Source of the DNA: Promethearchaeota archaeon
GTDB lineage: Archaea; Asgardarchaeota; Lokiarchaeia; Sigyniarchaeales; SOKP01
Direction: 5' to 3'
Length of the DNA: 64,000 nucleotides
NCBI GenBank assembly: GCA_048940925.1
Contig: JBHLOC010000002.1
Location: 192,001-256,000, forward strand
Shown one piece after another: positions 4,181-44,913 of the stretch; the first letter of the stretch is position 1; the number at the start of each line of letters is the position of its first letter. The notes below the pieces were generated by a model. It saw only the letters and a program-made list of their open reading frames with translations, made no database searches and was not told the origin of the DNA. The position numbers and the translations under genes are program-made.

Positions 4181-5605
4181 ATGTTTATCGAATATTATTA
4201 TTATTTAAAAGAAAGACTGCCGGTTAGTATTACAGAATACATGACTTTAATGGAAGCTCTCAATAAAGGGCTAATCCATAATATGGTTGAGTTTTACTAT
4301 GTTTCAAGATCTATTTTATGCAAAAACGAACACCATTTTGATGTTTACGACATCGCTTTTGTTAATTTTTTTAAAAATGCAATGATAAAATTCCCTGATG
4401 ATTTTAAACAAGAGATTTGGGATTGGCTTAATAAGGATATTACACTTCCTGAATTAATTGAGGGATTACAATTATTATTGAGAGAATATCAACAATATCT
4501 CACTGCAATAGATTTCCAAGAATTACTTGAGGAATTATTAACAAAGTATAGGGATAAACTTGAAGATACACTTTTAATAAATGCACCTGAAGAACTAAAA
4601 GAAGAAATATTAAAGTGGTTACAAGATAAGCTTAATATTGCTGAAATTGATAGTATTTCCCAGCAAATGTTAAACCAATTTTTTAATCTCGAAGAGATGC
4701 AAAAACAGTTTGAAGATTTAATGCAAAGGCAAGATGAAGAGCATAATTTTGGAGATCATTGGATTGGAACCCAAGGTACATCACCATTCGGTCATTCAGG
4801 AGAAAATCCAATGGGAATGAGAATTGGTGGCTCATCAGGTATGCGAACTGCTGTACAAATTGCCGAAAAACGGATTTTTAAAGATTATCGTAAAGATGTA
4901 GTCTTGGATACGCGACAAATCAAAGTTGCTCTGAAAAAACTAAAAAAACTTGAGGAGATTGGCAAAAGAGACGAATTAAATTTAGATGAAACTATTGATA
5001 AAACGGCTAAAAACTGTGGCGATATTGAGATAGTATTTGATAAACGCAGGAAAAATGATGTAAAACTCCTTCTATTAATGGACGTTGGAGGTAGTATGAC
5101 TCCCTATGCCCACCTCGTTAATTTACTTTTCTCTGCAGCAAACAATATGTCTCATTGGAAAGATTTCAAATATTATTATTTCCACAATTGTATCTATGAA
5201 ACACTATATTTTAATGCAAAACGTAATCCTGATGAAGCTATTGAATTCAACGATTTTCTTAGAAAATTTGATAATAAATATAAGGTAGTTATTGTAGGTG
5301 ATGCGGCAATGGCATCTTGGGAATTAACTGAAAAATACGGTTCGATATATTATTATCACAGGAATGAATTACCGGGTATCTATTATATCAGAGAAATTGC
5401 AAATCATTTTAAAAATGGCATTGTATGGTTAAATCCCGAACTTATAAAACCTGAATGGTCTCCATGGACTAGAAAAATCATTTCTAGTATTATTCCTATG
5501 TTTGATTTAACAATTGAAGGTATTGAAAAAGCTATGGATTATCTTAGAAAAGGTGGAAAAAATATGTATACAACGGTAAATTATTTTAAGGGATTAAATT
5601 ATTAG
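4181..5605 (+). CDS. vWA-domain protein (CoxE-like partner of MoxR)
   Basis: WIGTQGTSPFGHSG, LLLMDVGGSM (MIDAS-like), YYYFHNCIY, IVGDAAMA, VWLNP. Confidence 0.85.
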   Translation: MFIEYYYYLKERLPVSITEYMTLMEALNKGLIHNMVEFYYVSRSILCKNEHHFDVYDIAFVNFFKNAMIKFPDDFKQEIWDWLNKDITLPELIEGLQLLLREYQQYLTAIDFQELLEELLTKYRDKLEDTLLINAPEELKEEILKWLQDKLNIAEIDSISQQMLNQFFNLEEMQKQFEDLMQRQDEEHNFGDHWIGTQGTSPFGHSGENPMGMRIGGSSGMRTAVQIAEKRIFKDYRKDVVLDTRQIKVALKKLKKLEEIGKRDELNLDETIDKTAKNCGDIEIVFDKRRKNDVKLLLLMDVGGSMTPYAHLVNLLFSAANNMSHWKDFKYYYFHNCIYETLYFNAKRNPDEAIEFNDFLRKFDNKYKVVIVGDAAMASWELTEKYGSIYYYHRNELPGIYYIREIANHFKNGIVWLNPELIKPEWSPWTRKIISSIIPMFDLTIEGIEKAMDYLRKGGKNMYTTVNYFKGLNY

Positions 5606-5927
5606 TATAAAACGTCATCCAAATTGTTGAGTTCATTAACTTATATCAAACTATTTCATCTGGGAAAGATAATTATAAGATGTTTTAACATAGATTATCC
5701 TAAATATATTTGCTCTTTCTCTTTTTCTCCTTTTGTTCTAGGATCAGTAACAAATAACTGATCTATAAGATAAAAATAAATTTCTAAAATATCTTTATGG
5801 TAGTACCTTTTAAATTTTATACAAAATTTTAAACTTTTAATAAAAGATAGATCCAACTTTATCTAATGAGCCAATCATCCAATTTTAAGGATTTCAGATA
5901 AAAGCTATTTAAAAAAGAGTATGAGTC

Positions 5928-7451
5928 ATGAGCAAGTTTAATAATGAATTAAAAGAATCTGAAACCAAATATCTTAATCTCATAAATAATATTCTAGATA
6001 TTCTGGTTGAACTCAATTTAGACTTAACTATTACTTATATCAATTCTCAAGTTTATGACTTACTTGGTTATTCATCTGAAGAACTTATAGGAAAAAATTT
6101 TATTGATCATATACATCCTAATGAAATGACAAAAATAAATGAGATAATTAATTATGCCATCAAAAAAAATAAACAAATATCTATTGAATTAAATGTTAAG
6201 CACAAAAAAGGACAATATATTCAATTTTTAGGAAAGGGTCAATTGTTTAACGATAACACTCATGTTAAGATCGTGCTATTGCTAAGACCTGTAATAGGAT
6301 TAAAAGAAAACCAACAATTGTTAATGGAATCTTACAAAAAATATAGAAAAATAATTGAGAATATTGAGGATGGATATTTTGAAGTAGATCTACGCGGAAA
6401 TTATACTTATGTAAATGATTACACTTGTAGATATTTAGGGATTCCAAAAAAAGAACTATTAGGAAAAAATTATACTACTCTAGTAGATAAAGATACAATA
6501 GAAGAGATATATAAAATCTTTAATAATGTATATGAGAATGATCTTCCAAAAGGGACTTTTGAAAGTCAAGTTCTAAGAAGTGATGGTTCACTCCGTACTT
6601 TTGAAGGATCTTTTTATTTAAGATATGACTCCAGTGGAAGAAAAGTTGGTTTTTATGGTTTTACTCGAGATATAACTGAGAAAAAGGAAGCAGAAAAGAA
6701 ATTAAAACAATCCGAGAAAAAATTTCGAGAAGCATATAATCGAGCTGAACTTTATAAAGATTTATTCTATCATGATATTAATAATATACTTACTAATATT
6801 GGTATTTCAATTGAACTTAGTGAGAATTATCTAAATGATCCAGAGAGAGAAACAGATATTAAAGAAATTTACGATTTACTTAAAAAACAATTCGTTAGAG
6901 GGAAAAAATTAGTAACCAATGTTCAAAAATTATCTTCTTTAGATGCAGCCGAAAAATCTCTTAAATCCATTGATGCTATTAAAGTATTAAAAGATGCGAT
7001 TAATATTATTAGGACTAACAAGAGAATAAGAGATATTGATATTTCAATTGATTCATTTAAAGATGAAATCTTCATCCAAGCCAACGATCTCCTAATGGAT
7101 ATTTTTGAAAATCTATTAATTAATGCTTTAAATTATAATGATAAATCTAAAGTGGAGATTCTCATAAGAATTTCCAAAAAATTAGAAAAAAGTATAAGCT
7201 TCATTAAATTTGAATTTATAGATAATGGTATTGGAATTTCTGACGAAAAGAAAAGAGGCATTTTTCAAGAAAGATTCTTCAAAGAAAAAGGTTCAAAAGG
7301 AATGGGATTCGGATTAACTCTTGTAAAGAAAATATTAGAAAGTTATGGTGGCAAAATTTGGGTTGAAGATAGGGTGAAGGGGGATTATACTCAAGGTGCT
7401 AATTTCATTTTTTTAATCCGTGAAATTGCATCAAACTTAGAACTCAATTAG
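5928..7451 (+). CDS. Cytoplasmic PAS-PAS sensor histidine kinase
   Basis: Two PAS repeats; H-box FYHDINN; N-box ENLLINALNY; DNGIGI; GMGFGL. Confidence 0.9.
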   Translation: MSKFNNELKESETKYLNLINNILDILVELNLDLTITYINSQVYDLLGYSSEELIGKNFIDHIHPNEMTKINEIINYAIKKNKQISIELNVKHKKGQYIQFLGKGQLFNDNTHVKIVLLLRPVIGLKENQQLLMESYKKYRKIIENIEDGYFEVDLRGNYTYVNDYTCRYLGIPKKELLGKNYTTLVDKDTIEEIYKIFNNVYENDLPKGTFESQVLRSDGSLRTFEGSFYLRYDSSGRKVGFYGFTRDITEKKEAEKKLKQSEKKFREAYNRAELYKDLFYHDINNILTNIGISIELSENYLNDPERETDIKEIYDLLKKQFVRGKKLVTNVQKLSSLDAAEKSLKSIDAIKVLKDAINIIRTNKRIRDIDISIDSFKDEIFIQANDLLMDIFENLLINALNYNDKSKVEILIRISKKLEKSISFIKFEFIDNGIGISDEKKRGIFQERFFKEKGSKGMGFGLTLVKKILESYGGKIWVEDRVKGDYTQGANFIFLIREIASNLELN

Positions 7452-13334: not shown

Positions 13335-14543
13335 TTGAATGCAAACTCTATTTTAGATCAATATCTTAAATTATTAGGAAATAACGTTATAAAAAGAATT
13401 AAGAAAAAAGGAAAAGAATTTGAAAACCATAAAGTTTTCCATGTAAATGCTACCAAGTTTGGAGGAGGGGTAGCTGAGATCTTACATAATATGATTCCAT
13501 TAATGCAAGAATTAAAAATTGATGTGGATTGGAAAGTCTTTACTGCCCCTGATAGTTTTTTTGAAATATCCAAGCGAATGCATAATGCATTACAGGGTAA
13601 TATGGATATTAAATTTTCTAATGAAGAGATTTCCTCATATATTTCCCAGGCTAAATCTTCATATGAACAAATACAGCCTGATGGTGATTTTATAATAATG
13701 CATGACCCTCAACCATGTCCTATTATTAAATTTGCAGAAAAGAGAATAGGAAAATGGATATGGCGGTGTCATATTGATACTTCTAACCCAAATCCTCAAG
13801 CATGGGGAATTATTTCAAAATATCTTCCATTATATGATGCTCTCATTTTTACTAAGAAAGAATTTGCCAAAGAAGATATAACCACACCTATATTTCAAAT
13901 AACACCTTCAATTAACCCATTTTCGAATAAAAATAAACATATAGAAGAAAATGAAGCAAAAGAGATTGTGCAGAAATTTGTTCCCTTAGATTTGCCTCTT
14001 ATTACTCAAGTTTCCCGATTTGATCCATGGAAGGATCCTTTAGGTGTAATCGAAGTCTATAAAAAAGTTAGTGAAAAAATACCAATTCGTTTAGCATTGA
14101 TAGGTAGCTTAGCTCATGACGATCCAGAAGGCATAAAGTGGTTAGAACAACTAAAAAATTATGCAGGTGATGATCCAAATATTCATATATTATCAAATTT
14201 AGATGGGGTTGCAGATTTGGAAGTAAATGCGTTCCAACTAATTTCTAGTATCATATTGCAAAAATCTATTAGAGAGGGCTTTGGCCTCACTGTCACTGAA
14301 GCACTCTGGAAAGGCACACCTGTGATTGGAGGAAACGTTGGAGGGATTAAACTACAGATTGAGAATGGGGTCAATGGTTTCCTAGTAGATACAATCGAGG
14401 AAGCGACAGAAAAGGTCCTTTATTTGTTAAAAAATCCCAAAAAAGCAAAAGAAATGGGTCAAAATGGTTATGAAAAAGTAAAAAATGAATTTTTATTAAT
14501 TCACCATGTAGAAAAATATTTAGATCTTTTTAAAAGCATCTAA
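13335..14543 (+). CDS. treT: Trehalose synthase (GT4 glycosyltransferase TreT)
   Basis: HVNATKFGGGVAEIL, HDPQP, WRCHID, QVSRFDPWKD, QKSIREGFGLTVTEALWK. Confidence 0.9.
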   Translation: MNANSILDQYLKLLGNNVIKRIKKKGKEFENHKVFHVNATKFGGGVAEILHNMIPLMQELKIDVDWKVFTAPDSFFEISKRMHNALQGNMDIKFSNEEISSYISQAKSSYEQIQPDGDFIIMHDPQPCPIIKFAEKRIGKWIWRCHIDTSNPNPQAWGIISKYLPLYDALIFTKKEFAKEDITTPIFQITPSINPFSNKNKHIEENEAKEIVQKFVPLDLPLITQVSRFDPWKDPLGVIEVYKKVSEKIPIRLALIGSLAHDDPEGIKWLEQLKNYAGDDPNIHILSNLDGVADLEVNAFQLISSIILQKSIREGFGLTVTEALWKGTPVIGGNVGGIKLQIENGVNGFLVDTIEEATEKVLYLLKNPKKAKEMGQNGYEKVKNEFLLIHHVEKYLDLFKSI

Positions 14544-14579
14544 TACTTAGCAAATTGATATAGAATTAGTGAATTTAAA

Positions 14580-15713
14580 TTGAAAGCGCCCGAGAGAGTG
14601 TTAACTACTATTAAACACAAGGAACCTGATAAAGTTCCTGCGTTTGAAAGTGCTTTTACAAATAATAAAATAATGAAACATTACGGGCTTACTCCAAGAG
14701 AACAGGATACTAATCTCTTCCAAGAGATTTTAGAAAAGAAGCAAAATTTCAAGAAATGCTATTTGACTTCTCATGAACTTTTCTGTAAAATTGGTATCGA
14801 TATTATAACAACTCTTTCTAGTCTTTTCCCACTTAAAAAGCTAAAAAAAGGAGAGGGATTTATTGATGAGTATGGAAGAATAATGAAATATGAATACTAT
14901 AAAGATAATACAGTTATTTTAGGTTACTATGGTGGAGTTTTTAATAATTTTGAAGATTATGAGAGTTGGGAAAAACCTGAGCCAAATTGGGAACCAAGAA
15001 TTAATAGTTTTTTAGCAGGAAGAGAAATTCAAAAGGATTTAAAAGATAATGTTTTTTCTATTCCATCAACAGGAGCTTTAATGGAAGATGTATGGCAGGG
15101 CTTCGGACTAGAAACATTCTCAAAAATTCTAGCAAGACCAAAGCAGGCAAAAAAACTTTTTGATGAATATGGGGGCTTTACTCTTGAACTTGTCAAAATT
15201 TTAGCAGAGCTAGATGCCCAAATAGTATTACTTTTAGATGATTATGGTTATAAAAATGGATTATTTATGAAACCCTATTATTTTCATAAATATGTTTTTC
15301 CTTGGTTAAAGCGAATATGTGATGTTGCTCATAAACGTGATTGTAAAATAATGCTTCACTCTGATGGGGATTTATTGGAAATTTTTGAAGATATTATTAA
15401 TTGTGGAGTTGATGTTATTAATCCTATCGAACCCACAACAGCAAACCCAGATTATGATATTTTCAAATTAAAAAGAAAATACGGAGATCAAATTACTTTC
15501 GCGGGTAATTTAAGTCCAATGATGTTAGCAACAGGAACGATTGATGAAATAGAGATCTATGCTAAAAAACTAATAAAAGAATTAGCACCTGGAGGAGGAT
15601 ATATTTTTAGTAGTGGTCACTCAATAAATCCTGCTATAACAGTAGATCGATTTGAAGCAATGCAAAATATTAGAAGAGAGTATGGAATATATCCTATTAA
15701 TATTCCTGATTAA
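14580..15713 (+). CDS. Uroporphyrinogen decarboxylase-like / MtaA-CmuA family protein
   Basis: ERVL..IKHKEPDKVP, DDYG, HSDGD, PGGGYIFSSGHSI. Confidence 0.85.
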   Translation: MKAPERVLTTIKHKEPDKVPAFESAFTNNKIMKHYGLTPREQDTNLFQEILEKKQNFKKCYLTSHELFCKIGIDIITTLSSLFPLKKLKKGEGFIDEYGRIMKYEYYKDNTVILGYYGGVFNNFEDYESWEKPEPNWEPRINSFLAGREIQKDLKDNVFSIPSTGALMEDVWQGFGLETFSKILARPKQAKKLFDEYGGFTLELVKILAELDAQIVLLLDDYGYKNGLFMKPYYFHKYVFPWLKRICDVAHKRDCKIMLHSDGDLLEIFEDIINCGVDVINPIEPTTANPDYDIFKLKRKYGDQITFAGNLSPMMLATGTIDEIEIYAKKLIKELAPGGGYIFSSGHSINPAITVDRFEAMQNIRREYGIYPINIPD

Positions 15714-41475: not shown

Positions 41476-42363
41476 TTGATTTGGAAAACAAGAATAACCG
41501 AAATGGTAGATGGTCTTCAATACCCCATTATAATGGGAGCATTTGCTATAATAGGAAGAGCTGAATTTACTGCTGCATTTTCAGAAGCAGGGGGTCTAGG
41601 TATTTTAACTGCCTTAAATTTTGGAACCTCTGAAACATTTCAAGAAGAAATTAATAAAATGAAACAATTAACAAATAAACCATATGGTGTTAATTTTACA
41701 GTATGGCCACCACAAGTGAAAAGTGCAACTGGTAGAGACAGAACAGAAGAATCTTATTTTGATTTTTTAGATATTGCTCTTGATGCAGGTGTTAGAGTAT
41801 TTACTACATCCGCTTATAAAGCAGCTGAACTCGGAAGGAAAATACATAACGCAGGAGGTGTATGGTTTCATAAATGCGCAACAGTAAAACATGCAATATC
41901 TGCTGAAAAAGCAGGAGCTGATGGAGTGACGATAGTAGGTCTTGAAGGAACGGGTTTTAAAAACCCAAATCAAAATACTACACTTGTTAATATGACTATG
42001 GCAAGAAAATTGTTAAAGGTGCCACTTATAGCAGCTGGAGGGATTGGTGATGCTAGAGGATTTCTCGCTGCATTAGCAATGGGTGCTGATGCAGTATGCT
42101 TTGGGAGTGCTATAATGGCAACGAAGGAAAGTCCTGCTCCAGATGTATGGAAAAAGCAAGTTTTGAATCAAGATATATTTGATGAAAAATTTTACAAAAA
42201 GATTTTTCACCTTGAGCTAAGAGACTCTGGTATTGGTTCAATGGCTGTTGGTCATATTAATGAAGAAACTACGATTGAAGAATTCATACAAAATATTATT
42301 ATAAACGCAGAGAAAATTCTTAAAAATTGGGGAGTAAGAGACGAAATATTCAATCATACCTAG
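41476..42363 (+). CDS. Nitronate monooxygenase / FabK-like flavoenzyme
   Basis: SEAGGLG, GLEGTG, IAAGGIGDARG, GADAV. Confidence 0.85.
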   Translation: MIWKTRITEMVDGLQYPIIMGAFAIIGRAEFTAAFSEAGGLGILTALNFGTSETFQEEINKMKQLTNKPYGVNFTVWPPQVKSATGRDRTEESYFDFLDIALDAGVRVFTTSAYKAAELGRKIHNAGGVWFHKCATVKHAISAEKAGADGVTIVGLEGTGFKNPNQNTTLVNMTMARKLLKVPLIAAGGIGDARGFLAALAMGADAVCFGSAIMATKESPAPDVWKKQVLNQDIFDEKFYKKIFHLELRDSGIGSMAVGHINEETTIEEFIQNIIINAEKILKNWGVRDEIFNHT

Positions 42364-42394
42364 ATTTAATAGTAATAATATTTAAAGATAAAGA

Positions 42395-42742
42395 AGGGAC
42401 GAGAAGGTGCAACAAATACCCAAGGGTGTTCATTGCGTGGTATTGTTTTTCCTTACTTGGAGCAAGGAAGTCTCAACGTATTATTTCAAGCCACGTCGTG
42501 AAAAGAACCATAATTCATTGAATAAATTTTTATCCTATAAAATATATTACCGTTAGATAATCTCACTAATCCTTGCGGATTAGCCGGATTGAACACCGAA
42601 TATAAACCATAAGGCTTACATTTTAGTTCAGATTATGCTTTTACACACAACCTCCTTTCATATCGTTTCTGATCAACCGATGGTTGTAATACATTGAGGT
42701 AAACATTACCTCTTCTCGACGTTCATACCGTAAGATATGAAC
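42395..42742 (-). ncRNA. Putative ~350-nt structured non-coding RNA of unknown class
   Basis: Multiple helices, GCAA tetraloop, 12-bp long-range helix, 8-bp pseudoknot pairing, upstream TATA-like box, U-rich 3' end; G-U pairs favour the minus strand. Confidence 0.7.
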
Positions 42743-42764
42743 AATATATGATGTGAAGAAAACC

Positions 42765-42775
42765 TATTTAAATAA
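42765..42775 (-). promoter_or_regulatory. TATA-like box (TTATTTAAATA) ~25 nt upstream of the putative ncRNA
   Basis: Archaeal TATA consensus and spacing; AT-rich genome lowers specificity. Confidence 0.45.
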
Positions 42776-43065
42776 AACTGTTAAGGGGTTATTATGACCT
42801 TTTTGTCGGTTTACAACTATTACAGAATTTTTTAGTCGGAATCAAGTTTCATTTAAATATTTCATTCCATTTAAATCTAGATTTCATGTGAAAGGAAAAA
42901 CGAAAAACGATAAAAAGTTAATTTTAGGATTGAATCTTGAAAAAAGCTTAAATTATTTCAGCGTTAAGGTTAAATTCGACAAAATTTATATATACAATTA
43001 AATAAGTTGTGATTATCAAGAGAAGTACAATAATAATAACAATTTTGAAAAAAAAGGATTAAATT

Positions 43066-44913
43066 ATGATTACAGATCGAATTTTGTTAACAACTCCTTG
43101 TTACCCTTATCCTTCTTTACCTGCGAATGATTCACTTACAGATGCGACTGGACAAAGATTTACTCATGGAGATGATATCTTTACACTTGTCTCGCACACT
43201 CATTGTTATGCAAATCACATTTTAGCGCAAAATGTTAATCTTCCAGCAACTTTACTTGAGTACCCGCGCTGGAATAATTTTGTTGAAGAAGTAGATAAAG
43301 AGTATGCCATTATTGGGATCAGTGCTTTTCCTGTACATCTTGATATGGTTATGAAGATGTGTAAATATATTCGTGAAAAATCTCCCGAAACGAAAATTCT
43401 CCTTGGAAGCTATGGAGCTCAGGCTTTTGCGGCACAATATGATGAAGAAACTAAAAAAAAATATGTAGATCATGTTGTTCTAGGCGAAGGTGTAAATTTT
43501 CTTCGTGAACTATTAAAAGAGGACACAAATCGTCCTATCCAGCAGAAATTAATGCCTAAGTGTGGTGGAGCGCCACCATTTCTTAATAAATATCCCCGAG
43601 GAGGTATTGGGTTTTTAGTTACAGGATTAGGATGTCCTGGAGGCTGCGATTTTTGTTCGACAACGGAAATGTTTGGAAAAAAAAGGATTGAACTACTCTC
43701 CCCAGAAGAGTTTGTTAACCATGTTGAACTTTATCGTAAACACTTTAAACAACTTTCTTCAATTTTTGTAATCGAAGAAGATCATTTCCGTCATCCGCGG
43801 TGGATGGTAAAAACCAAGGAAAAATGGGAAAAAAATCTGGATCTCGTGGAAAACGTTGACTGGACTGGTTTTGGTTCAGTAGATTTCATCTGGCATTTTG
43901 CTAGTAATTATGGATGGGATGCCATTCCTGAAACAGGAATAGGCGCGGTTTTCATTGGTGTAGAATCTAAATTCGCAGGAGAGCATGGCTACAGAAAAGT
44001 TAAAGAAGCTGATGCTAGAGAAGTTTTTCATAAACTTCATTCAATGGGCATTCGTACGCTTGGAGCATGGATATGCGGGTGGGATTATCATAACCATGCA
44101 AACATGTATGAGGATCTTAATTATTTTATTGCATGTAAGCCTACTTATCAGCAATTAACACGTTTATCTCCATTTCCTGGGACTGAATTATGGCGTAAAC
44201 TTAAGGAACAAGGAAGAGTTTGTGAAGTACCATGGGAAGATGTACATTTCTGGAGTGGAGCACAGAAAAACATATCTTTAGAAACTCATGAAACCTTGAA
44301 TCTAACAGAATATGGATATGATTTGATGTACCGAACATGGGGTCCATCGATGCTTAGAAGGCTTGAGGTTACATTGAATGGGTATGAATATTGTATGAAT
44401 TCTGATAATCCATTAATGCGGGAACATAGATCTCAATTATTCAAACGAGGTTCTGCAACATCTTGGAGTATGTTAGGTGCTATGGATCGTTTTGCTCCTA
44501 ATGGTGTTGTGCGGAGGAGAGTTCAAAAAGCAGATGAAAGATTTAGAGATCTTATTGGTGAACCTACTCCAATGATGGAGTTGATAAGTAAAAATGTTGA
44601 ACAGAGTGCAGTGAAATTTAAAATGAAACACTTATTTGATCCGTTTGATCGAAAACCAAGAGAAGAACCCACTAAACGATATCTTTATAACAAAGATAAA
44701 TCAATAAAAGATGATGATATCCCCTATATTACTGAGTATCCTAATAAGATTCCAAAAAAGGTTCGCAGGGATATGAAGAGAAATAATTTTAAATATAAGC
44801 TCATTAACAAATTCCTTAGCACTAAGTATAGAGTCAAATCCACTAAACGTTTGAGTGAATTAGATGAAATTATTTTAAATAATATAAGAGGACAAAGCTA
44901 TGGAGGTTTCTAA
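43066..44913 (+). CDS. B12-binding-domain radical SAM protein
   Basis: N-terminal Rossmann-like domain (IIGISAF...ILLGSYG...VVLGEG), CPGGCDFC, GVES, PFPGT. Confidence 0.85.
   Translation: MITDRILLTTPCYPYPSLPANDSLTDATGQRFTHGDDIFTLVSHTHCYANHILAQNVNLPATLLEYPRWNNFVEEVDKEYAIIGISAFPVHLDMVMKMCKYIREKSPETKILLGSYGAQAFAAQYDEETKKKYVDHVVLGEGVNFLRELLKEDTNRPIQQKLMPKCGGAPPFLNKYPRGGIGFLVTGLGCPGGCDFCSTTEMFGKKRIELLSPEEFVNHVELYRKHFKQLSSIFVIEEDHFRHPRWMVKTKEKWEKNLDLVENVDWTGFGSVDFIWHFASNYGWDAIPETGIGAVFIGVESKFAGEHGYRKVKEADAREVFHKLHSMGIRTLGAWICGWDYHNHANMYEDLNYFIACKPTYQQLTRLSPFPGTELWRKLKEQGRVCEVPWEDVHFWSGAQKNISLETHETLNLTEYGYDLMYRTWGPSMLRRLEVTLNGYEYCMNSDNPLMREHRSQLFKRGSATSWSMLGAMDRFAPNGVVRRRVQKADERFRDLIGEPTPMMELISKNVEQSAVKFKMKHLFDPFDRKPREEPTKRYLYNKDKSIKDDDIPYITEYPNKIPKKVRRDMKRNNFKYKLINKFLSTKYRVKSTKRLSELDEIILNNIRGQSYGGF

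Follow-up and report, generated by a model that had tools for sequence, protein, structure and literature searches.

A stretch of 64,000 nucleotides from the genome of a Promethearchaeota archaeon (GenBank assembly GCA_048940925.1, contig JBHLOC010000002.1, positions 192,001 to 256,000 of the forward strand) is called the window here. It contains a gap of 700 bp between two plus-strand genes, one for an NMO-like oxidoreductase and the other for a B12-binding radical SAM protein. This gap holds a genuine gene for a structured non-coding RNA on the minus strand. The candidate was delimited at 42395-42742, and the gene runs from about 42742 to 42400, a length of 343 nt. Both flanking genes are antisense to the RNA, and no co-oriented gene lies 3' of it at this locus. 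The lack of such a gene downstream, and of a match to any riboswitch model in Rfam, speaks against a riboswitch or cis-regulatory leader.

A preliminary description, made from the letters of the window, had found no credible open reading frame in the gap, and the relatives bear this out. No ORF is conserved. At least two stop codons fall in every frame of all 35 homologues, and the longest open stretch shifts strand and frame between these species. The G+C content of the RNA is 36%, compared with 23% in the upstream spacer and 31% in the whole window.

Dense pairing had been reported for the minus strand, and this is what folding calculations give. The minimum free energy of that strand is -117.7 kcal/mol, against -73.8 +/- 5.4 kcal/mol for dinucleotide shuffles (z = -8.1), and none of 100 shuffles folds as well. 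The plus strand reaches a z of -2.5 only. Such an asymmetry between strands is the expected product of many G-U pairs.

BLAST searches against relatives recover full-length homologues from another 30 species of the window's genus, 71-91% identical, and partial matches from a second genus. The records are metagenome-assembled genomes (MAGs) of Promethearchaeota, which are Loki-type Asgard archaea, and the Asgard origin presumed in the preliminary description is correct. Comparison of relatives had been proposed as one check on the candidate, and its outcome is clear. In an alignment of 35 sequences, each from a different species (A2, the type A alignment), the RNAalifold consensus has 121 pairs in 18 helices, and 92.2% of the cells form standard pairs. 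Counted on this consensus, 52 pairs show compensatory change on both sides, compared with 30.8 +/- 3.3 in shuffled alignments. None of 500 shuffles matches the observed count, and controls with slid partners give 17-28. A second alignment (A4) holds 16 sequences of a shorter form, type S, from three genera. It has 79 pairs, of which 91.8% of cells are paired and 38 pairs are compensatory; again no shuffle among 500 equals this number. Since the G-U pairs are strand-specific and the changes compensatory, chance folding and an element acting at the DNA level are rejected.

All helices of the model are present in the window sequence (Table 1). From the outside inwards, the RNA is built of P0, P1, P2, P3, a small GNRA-capped hairpin and an inner domain with P4 and P5 as its closing helices. 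The inner domain opens into five hairpin arms, namely P6; P7, which encloses P8; P9; P10; and P11. On the 3' side, the hairpins P12 and P13 precede the 3' strand of P1, which thus encloses the remainder of the RNA.

Table 1. Features of the RNA gene and its flanks (positions in the window; pairing and compensatory changes from the alignments of relatives).
Feature	Positions	Strand	Description
NMO-like oxidoreductase gene (upstream-coordinate flank)	ends 42363	plus	convergent to the RNA
B12-binding radical SAM protein gene (other flank)	starts 43066	plus	
17-nt upstream element, TAATAAYCCNTTAAYAG / TAATAACCCCTTAACAG	42778-42794	minus	about -52 to -36 from the proposed start
TATA box, TTTAAATA	42765-42772	minus	first base 30 nt before G42742; nearly invariant in alignment A3
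P0, 5'-terminal hairpin, GUUCAUAUC-UUAC-GGUAUGAAC	42721-42742	minus	8 pairs, 98% paired, 3 compensatory
P1, closing helix, CGAGAAG/CUUCUCG	42712-42718 with 42400-42406	minus	7 bp, 99% paired
P2, long-range helix, GGUAAUGUU/ACAAUACC	42702-42710 with 42439-42446	minus	97.8% paired, 3 compensatory
P3, long-range helix	42687-42697 with 42473-42483	minus	11-12 bp, 90.5% paired, 4 compensatory
P3a, small hairpin	42675-42684	minus	GNRA-closed ACC-GNAA-GGU in most species
P3b	42669-42674 with 42484-42489	minus	4 compensatory pairs, only 83% paired
Module A, five-way-junction domain	42493-42666	minus	about 175 nt; helices 7-15, each with compensatory pairs
P4	42664-42666/42493-42495	minus	module A
P5	42653-42660/42499-42506	minus	module A
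P6, hairpin	42631-42652	minus	module A
P7/P8	42591-42629	minus	module A
Hairpin UGUAAGCC/GGUUUAUA	42599-42622	minus	confirmed across 35 species
P9, hairpin CUAAUCC-GCAA-GGAUUAG	42562-42587	minus	GCAA loop; confirmed across 35 species
P10	42546-42561	minus	module A
P11	42510-42545	minus	module A
P12, 3' handle hairpin, UUCCUUGCU/AGUAAGGAA	42450-42468	minus	all 4 counted pairs compensatory
P13, 3' handle hairpin	42409-42436	minus	just 5' of the P1 3' strand; helices 17-18, 6 compensatory
3' tail, UCCCUUCUUUAUCUUU	42380-42399	minus	probable termination region; C-rich, then U-rich

Six of the helices listed in the preliminary description are confirmed by the comparison of 35 species: P0, P1, P3, P9, P12 and the hairpin UGUAAGCC/GGUUUAUA. 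Three other pairings fare worse. One local hairpin, GAGGUAA/UUACCUC, has 79% of its cells paired and a single compensatory change. The long-range helix P2 outdoes it, and just those species in which the hairpin is broken have A-U in place of G-C in P2. A helix AUAAUCU/AGAUUAU has no compensatory pairs, and both of its strands are used by supported local hairpins. The third is an 8-bp pseudoknot, GGUGUUCA/UGAACACC. Its strands are complementary in the window species; in 18 of the 35 species the central pair cannot form. The strands also compete with two supported helices, P7 and P13. In an alignment-free comparison, the energy of the duplex is barely better within species (-7.9 kcal/mol) than between species (-6.9 kcal/mol). 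The pseudoknot may hold for a subset of species, and the label "pseudoknotted" is not supported.

The closing helix P1 is almost invariant in sequence in both alignments. It carries a C-G to U-A change in the type S alignment, and a second change, to A-U, is seen by eye in one type S member. In module A, P7 is 100% paired, with eight C-G to U-A switches. Between P4 and P5 lies a conserved 3x3 internal loop, AUA/CGA. Neither this loop nor the AA/AA loop of type S shows a canonical K-turn register by eye, and no other known protein-binding motif was recognised in the same way. A candidate pairing joins the P0 loop to ACCGUU, which lies ahead of P13. Standard pairs fill 82.7% of its cells, and the second genus shows a single switch from C-G to U-A; supported helices take up half of the pairing, and it does not form in the clade of the window species.

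P0 is deleted exactly in two species of the same genus (L006 and L036), in which the remainder of the RNA is kept. This precise loss implies that P0 is not essential for the persistence of the RNA.

The apical junction has almost no linker bases. It combines invariant unpaired stretches (GAUAUGAAA, UCGGUGUUCAAUC and UCACGACG) with GNRA loops, and RNAs whose tertiary folds are intricate typically show such features. These features would suit a ribozyme or a trans-acting ligand sensor, with the five-way junction as its active site or binding pocket. Such a role is nevertheless unlikely. No ribozyme or riboswitch of Rfam matches, there is no downstream gene to regulate, and in sister species the domain is replaced at the same locus by an unrelated one, which would be odd for an active site.

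The gene is preceded by the TATA-like box of the preliminary description. From archaeal TATA spacing, transcription would begin at G42742, the first base of P0. Further upstream lies a 17-nt element. Both the TATA box and this element are kept in 41 of 41 aligned members (alignment A3), which cover all size types and three genera. Their combined motif is found at this one place in the 4.8-Mb genome, and the promoters of its genes for RNase P RNA and SRP RNA lack it. A conserved upstream motif that is unique in the genome suggests dedicated transcription control, and a transcription factor of its own may bind the 17-nt element.

At the other end, a U-rich tract had been noted downstream, and a pyrimidine- and U-rich tail does follow after 42400. 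A C-rich and then U-rich tail after P1 is kept in all types, and the 3' end of the RNA probably lies within it. Taken together, these sequence signals indicate that the RNA is probably a transcription unit of its own, independently transcribed, with ends that we infer from the signals at either side.

Contigs assembled from metatranscriptomes fall within the RNA, at 42426-42721. They come from two mangrove runs of one study, are of low depth and give neither strand nor ends, and they lend weak support to expression. The flanks at 42100-42405 and 42746-43100 have no contig cover in the two runs, which does not mean that they are silent.

The preliminary description took the RNA to be large, structured and of no known class, and proposed a search of Rfam. 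Strong covariation and the absence of a match agree with this. Rfam 15 yields no family match in the whole window at gathering thresholds, and only noise at the locus at E<=10. Five other loci of the family, which cover all size types, likewise give noise only at E<=1. Full-text literature searches turned up no account of an RNA like this one, and ARAGORN detects neither a tRNA nor a tmRNA in the window. Matches to C/D and H/ACA guide sRNAs are at chance level (snoRNA models, E 4-10).

The absence of RNase P and SRP hallmarks had also been remarked upon, and matches to both are located elsewhere in the genome. The model for RNase P RNA (RF00373) does not match the RNA; it finds the genome's own gene at contig 41, 65126-65448, with 132 bits. 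That gene lies on the same contig as the RNA described here, at a different place. The SRP model (RF01857) has no match in the window and a 43-bit match to its S domain, below the cut-off, on contig 37. At this second place (about 14000-14600, L002) only the S domain is matched, and the surroundings look G+C-rich and structured; in this lineage the SRP RNA may have grown or diverged.

RNase P and SRP RNAs share with the window RNA a length of about 300 nt, a helix closing the 5' and 3' ends, several domains, an own promoter and stability. On the ground of size and closing helix, one could suppose a diverged housekeeping RNA of this or a similar sort, or, at the other extreme, a DNA-level element or a chance fold. 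It is very improbable that any of these accounts for the locus. An RNase P match above the cut-off and an SRP S domain occur elsewhere, while the window RNA itself has no match, even a weak one, up to E<=10. It is also dispensable in many complete genomes, unlike those RNAs. The absence of any RNA is contradicted by the strand-specific compensatory changes and by contigs from RNA libraries that cover the locus.

Y RNAs, including bacterial YrlA, offer another comparison. They share a conserved terminal stem, variable modules, few copies and patchy occurrence. The window RNA is much larger, however, and has no tRNA-like module, and the bulged-helix motif bound by Ro was not seen by eye. The TROVE domain (PF05731) of a Ro60 RNP is absent from the window's own genome, in a search whose positive controls matched.

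The closest analogy in kind is with the large, ornate bacterial RNAs OLE, GOLLD, ROOL and the raiA motif RNA. Like the window RNA, these have a large multi-junction fold, strong covariation and no coding capacity. They are also restricted to lineages and patchy in occurrence, and their function cannot be deduced from context. All four are represented in Rfam, and none matched. They are bacterial and show no match in sequence or structure, whereas the window RNA is archaeal and belongs to a family that is smaller (263-732 nt), is built as a handle with exchangeable domains and is not phage-borne in the data searched. By sequence and by structure, it is an RNA class without a known match, and the combination of a handle with swappable domains is unusual.

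The exchangeable domains came to light in relatives that matched the query at its two ends only; in one of them the match falls into two pieces with about 325 extra bases between. Extracting everything between P0 and the 3' strand of P1 sorts the family into discrete size classes between 263 and 732 nt. Type S measures 263-266 nt and has module B at its apex. Type A, to which the window RNA belongs, measures 320-348 nt and has module A. A similar form in the second genus, with 371-373 nt, also carries module A. Type BA has 658 nt, in which one copy of module B is followed by extra sequence and then by module A. Type L, finally, has 727-732 nt and contains module B repeated, along with further sequence.

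The promoter, P0, P1, P2, P3, P12 and P13 are common to all types, type S included for the last two, and the types differ in what stands at the apex of P3. This helix is the insertion point of the variable domain, and in type S it closes module B. In module B, a helix interrupted by an AA/AA internal loop leads into three hairpins, of which UAUAUC-UUCG-GAUAUA is nearly invariant. The domains of types A and S are unrelated in sequence and in fold. One handle chassis therefore carries exchangeable apical domains.

The handle can also be extended, since some species have gained an extra, second 5' hairpin. One locus (L152, contig 76 of G091, 5050-6400) has two tandem type S genes behind the gene for a family-B DNA polymerase (polB). 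Each has its own promoter and, between P0 and P1, an additional hairpin.

The variation in module number recalls 6S and CsrB/RsmZ RNAs, abundant stand-alone RNAs that sequester proteins. Modules of the window family could likewise serve as a decoy or sponge that titrates a regulator or enzyme, with more sites on the long forms. Module B is repeated inside the forms of about 730 nt (the model finds two copies in the one such genome searched), the number of modules varies between species while the handle is constant, and the dedicated conserved promoter suggests regulated abundance. A sponge is rather unlikely all the same. A protein titrated by the type A domain would hardly also be titrated by the type S domain, which is unrelated to it. 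A single apical domain is carried by types A and S and by the forms of 371-373 nt. The rod that mimics an open promoter in 6S is missing, as are the short repeated GGA hairpins of CsrB; large folded junctions take their place.

The genomic neighbourhood of the RNA differs within the family. At 12 de-duplicated loci, found in two genera, a polB gene of 800 aa precedes the RNA on its strand, and about 130-190 nt (in one case about 650 nt) separate the stop codon of polB from the start of the RNA. These loci hold RNAs of type S, type L and the 371-373-nt form, and often a GyrI-like gene lies beyond the RNA. Further type S copies are found behind PolB, including the tandem pair. At 17 type A loci of the window's genus, the RNA follows a gene for a membrane protein of 126 aa. 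This small protein has no Pfam match and is unlikely to be a partner. In the window genome and its two nearest relatives the RNA stands at a third location; at the window locus, neither PolB nor the 126-aa gene is beside it. The PolB gene of the window genome is on contig 77 and has no RNA behind it, the RNA being on another contig.

Different apical domains occur at the same polB-linked locus in sister species, which indicates one gene remodelled in place and not a set of unrelated genes. The position next to polB is the probable ancestral arrangement. This raises the prospect that the RNA regulates or assists the polymerase, and the 12 adjacent loci, with their two genera and three size types, together with the further type S copies, count in its favour. 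Such a link to replication is nonetheless improbable. The window's PolB lacks the RNA, many genomes retain PolB only, and the RNA has its own promoter. Inheritance of gene order explains the linkage equally well, and the conserved neighbours in general may reflect plain synteny.

Contig 90 of the window genome carries a second, partial PolB at its edge (1-492), 88% identical to the PolB of a relative. This fits the contamination estimate of 8.4%, or a second strain in the bin.

The distribution of the family was surveyed with three covariance models, for the promoter and 5' handle (R1), module A (R2) and module B (R3). The window RNA has the conserved promoter, P0, P1 and an apical domain enclosed by P2 and P3. 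It scores 119.6 bits with R1 and 184.9 bits with R2, matches that follow by construction, as the window is in the seed of both models. R1 matches 58 of 135 genomes of one taxonomic family. By genus, these are 36 of 53, 20 of 42 and 1 of 6, and ten other genera have none. R2 matches 39 of the 135. All strong R2 matches lie at R1 loci, or at an RNA locus defined by blastn whose 5' part is cut by the end of a contig.

Outside the family, R1 has no match in 24 genomes that represent six further families of the class (f2-f7), and R3 has none in 126 genomes from 26 other families of the phylum; these searches are samples (about 150 Asgard genomes) with strict filters. The sister family, which includes two closed genomes, has no match. 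A hunt anchored on polB, which sought the P1 5' strand and a complementary strand downstream and in which a subset was read by eye, found nothing behind PolB in 10 other genera and 2 other families. The RNA belongs to a family not described before, which is restricted to a single taxonomic family of the Loki-type Asgard archaea and for which no cultured host was found.

Within that family, occurrence is patchy. Eight genomes with a completeness score of 100% give no match. Positive genomes mostly carry one match, and six carry two: G019, G081, G084, G091 and G120, and G105 with two copies of module B. One genome has the tandem pair, and two loci are decayed copies. The patchy distribution, the complete negative genomes and the degenerate copies together imply that the RNA is dispensable. 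It is therefore accessory and repeatedly lost, and an accessory role fits better than that of a core RNP.

The decayed members (L148, on contig 3 of G101, and L149, on contig 123 of G084) have a recognisable handle and domain, and lack either the TATA box of the promoter or the 3' closing strand. They fit an ongoing loss of the gene. In G081, a type S gene behind polB (contig 48) coexists with a type A gene elsewhere (contig 4). The type A copy scores 113 bits, compared with about 180 in relatives, and 52 bits with the promoter model; it may be decaying.

Patchiness and duplicated or decayed copies are also what a selfish element would produce. The preliminary description had considered an orphan RNA of a mobile element of the HEARO or omega type, and the window RNA does resemble omega RNAs in its size of several hundred nucleotides and its complexity, as well as in the pseudoknot once suspected. 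That it is the guide or scaffold RNA of an IscB/TnpB or other selfish element is nevertheless highly improbable. A count of copies, also proposed at the outset, gives one in its own genome, whether by BLAST or by nhmmer searches started from each type of the family. The neighbouring genes are metabolic, with no adjacent IscB, IsrB, TnpB, integrase or reverse transcriptase. No HEARO model of Rfam matches, the RNA keeps a syntenic position from species to species, and the comparison lends the pseudoknot no support.

Carriage by viruses was approached with a 19-mer motif, which matches 50 viral contigs and at least 120 metagenome contigs. The promoter and closing helix are found together on none of the 50 viral contigs and on only 7 of the at least 120 metagenome contigs. 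There is thus no sign that viruses carry the RNA.

The reading that we favour, with moderate confidence, is an independently transcribed structured RNA gene that acts in trans, as the RNA of a scaffold or ribonucleoprotein with a handle and an apical domain. In this proposal the handle would stabilise the transcript and protect its ends. The handle is kept in sequence as well as in pairing, P1 above all, and it may provide a sequence-specific docking site for a partner protein. No such partner was identified from conserved neighbours. The apical domain would carry the specific activity, and it probably binds a protein or a small ligand. The whole would be the scaffold of a small RNP acting in trans.

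More specifically, and more tentatively, the RNA could be the RNA subunit of an RNP specific to Asgard archaea, or a ribozyme. A protein would dock on the handle, and the swappable domains would perform recognition or chemistry. In this reading a link to DNA replication may exist, given the probable ancestral position directly behind polB.

Restriction to one family and repeated loss limit the general importance of the RNA, which is not a universal Asgard component or a eukaryote-like RNP component. It has value as a natural experiment in RNA modularity, since at least two unrelated domains, alone or in tandem, occur at the same locus in sister species. The RNA is compact enough for chemical probing and cryo-EM, and the alignments and covariance models are ready for Rfam.

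To our knowledge, large structured RNAs that covary to this extent nearly always have a specific task, and new classes of them now come to light only rarely. Asgard archaea are the closest prokaryotic relatives of eukaryotes, and we know of almost no large structured RNA classes from them. If the RNA is indeed the subunit of an Asgard-specific RNP or a ribozyme, these archaea would have yielded their first functional RNA class that is large, modular and lineage-specific.
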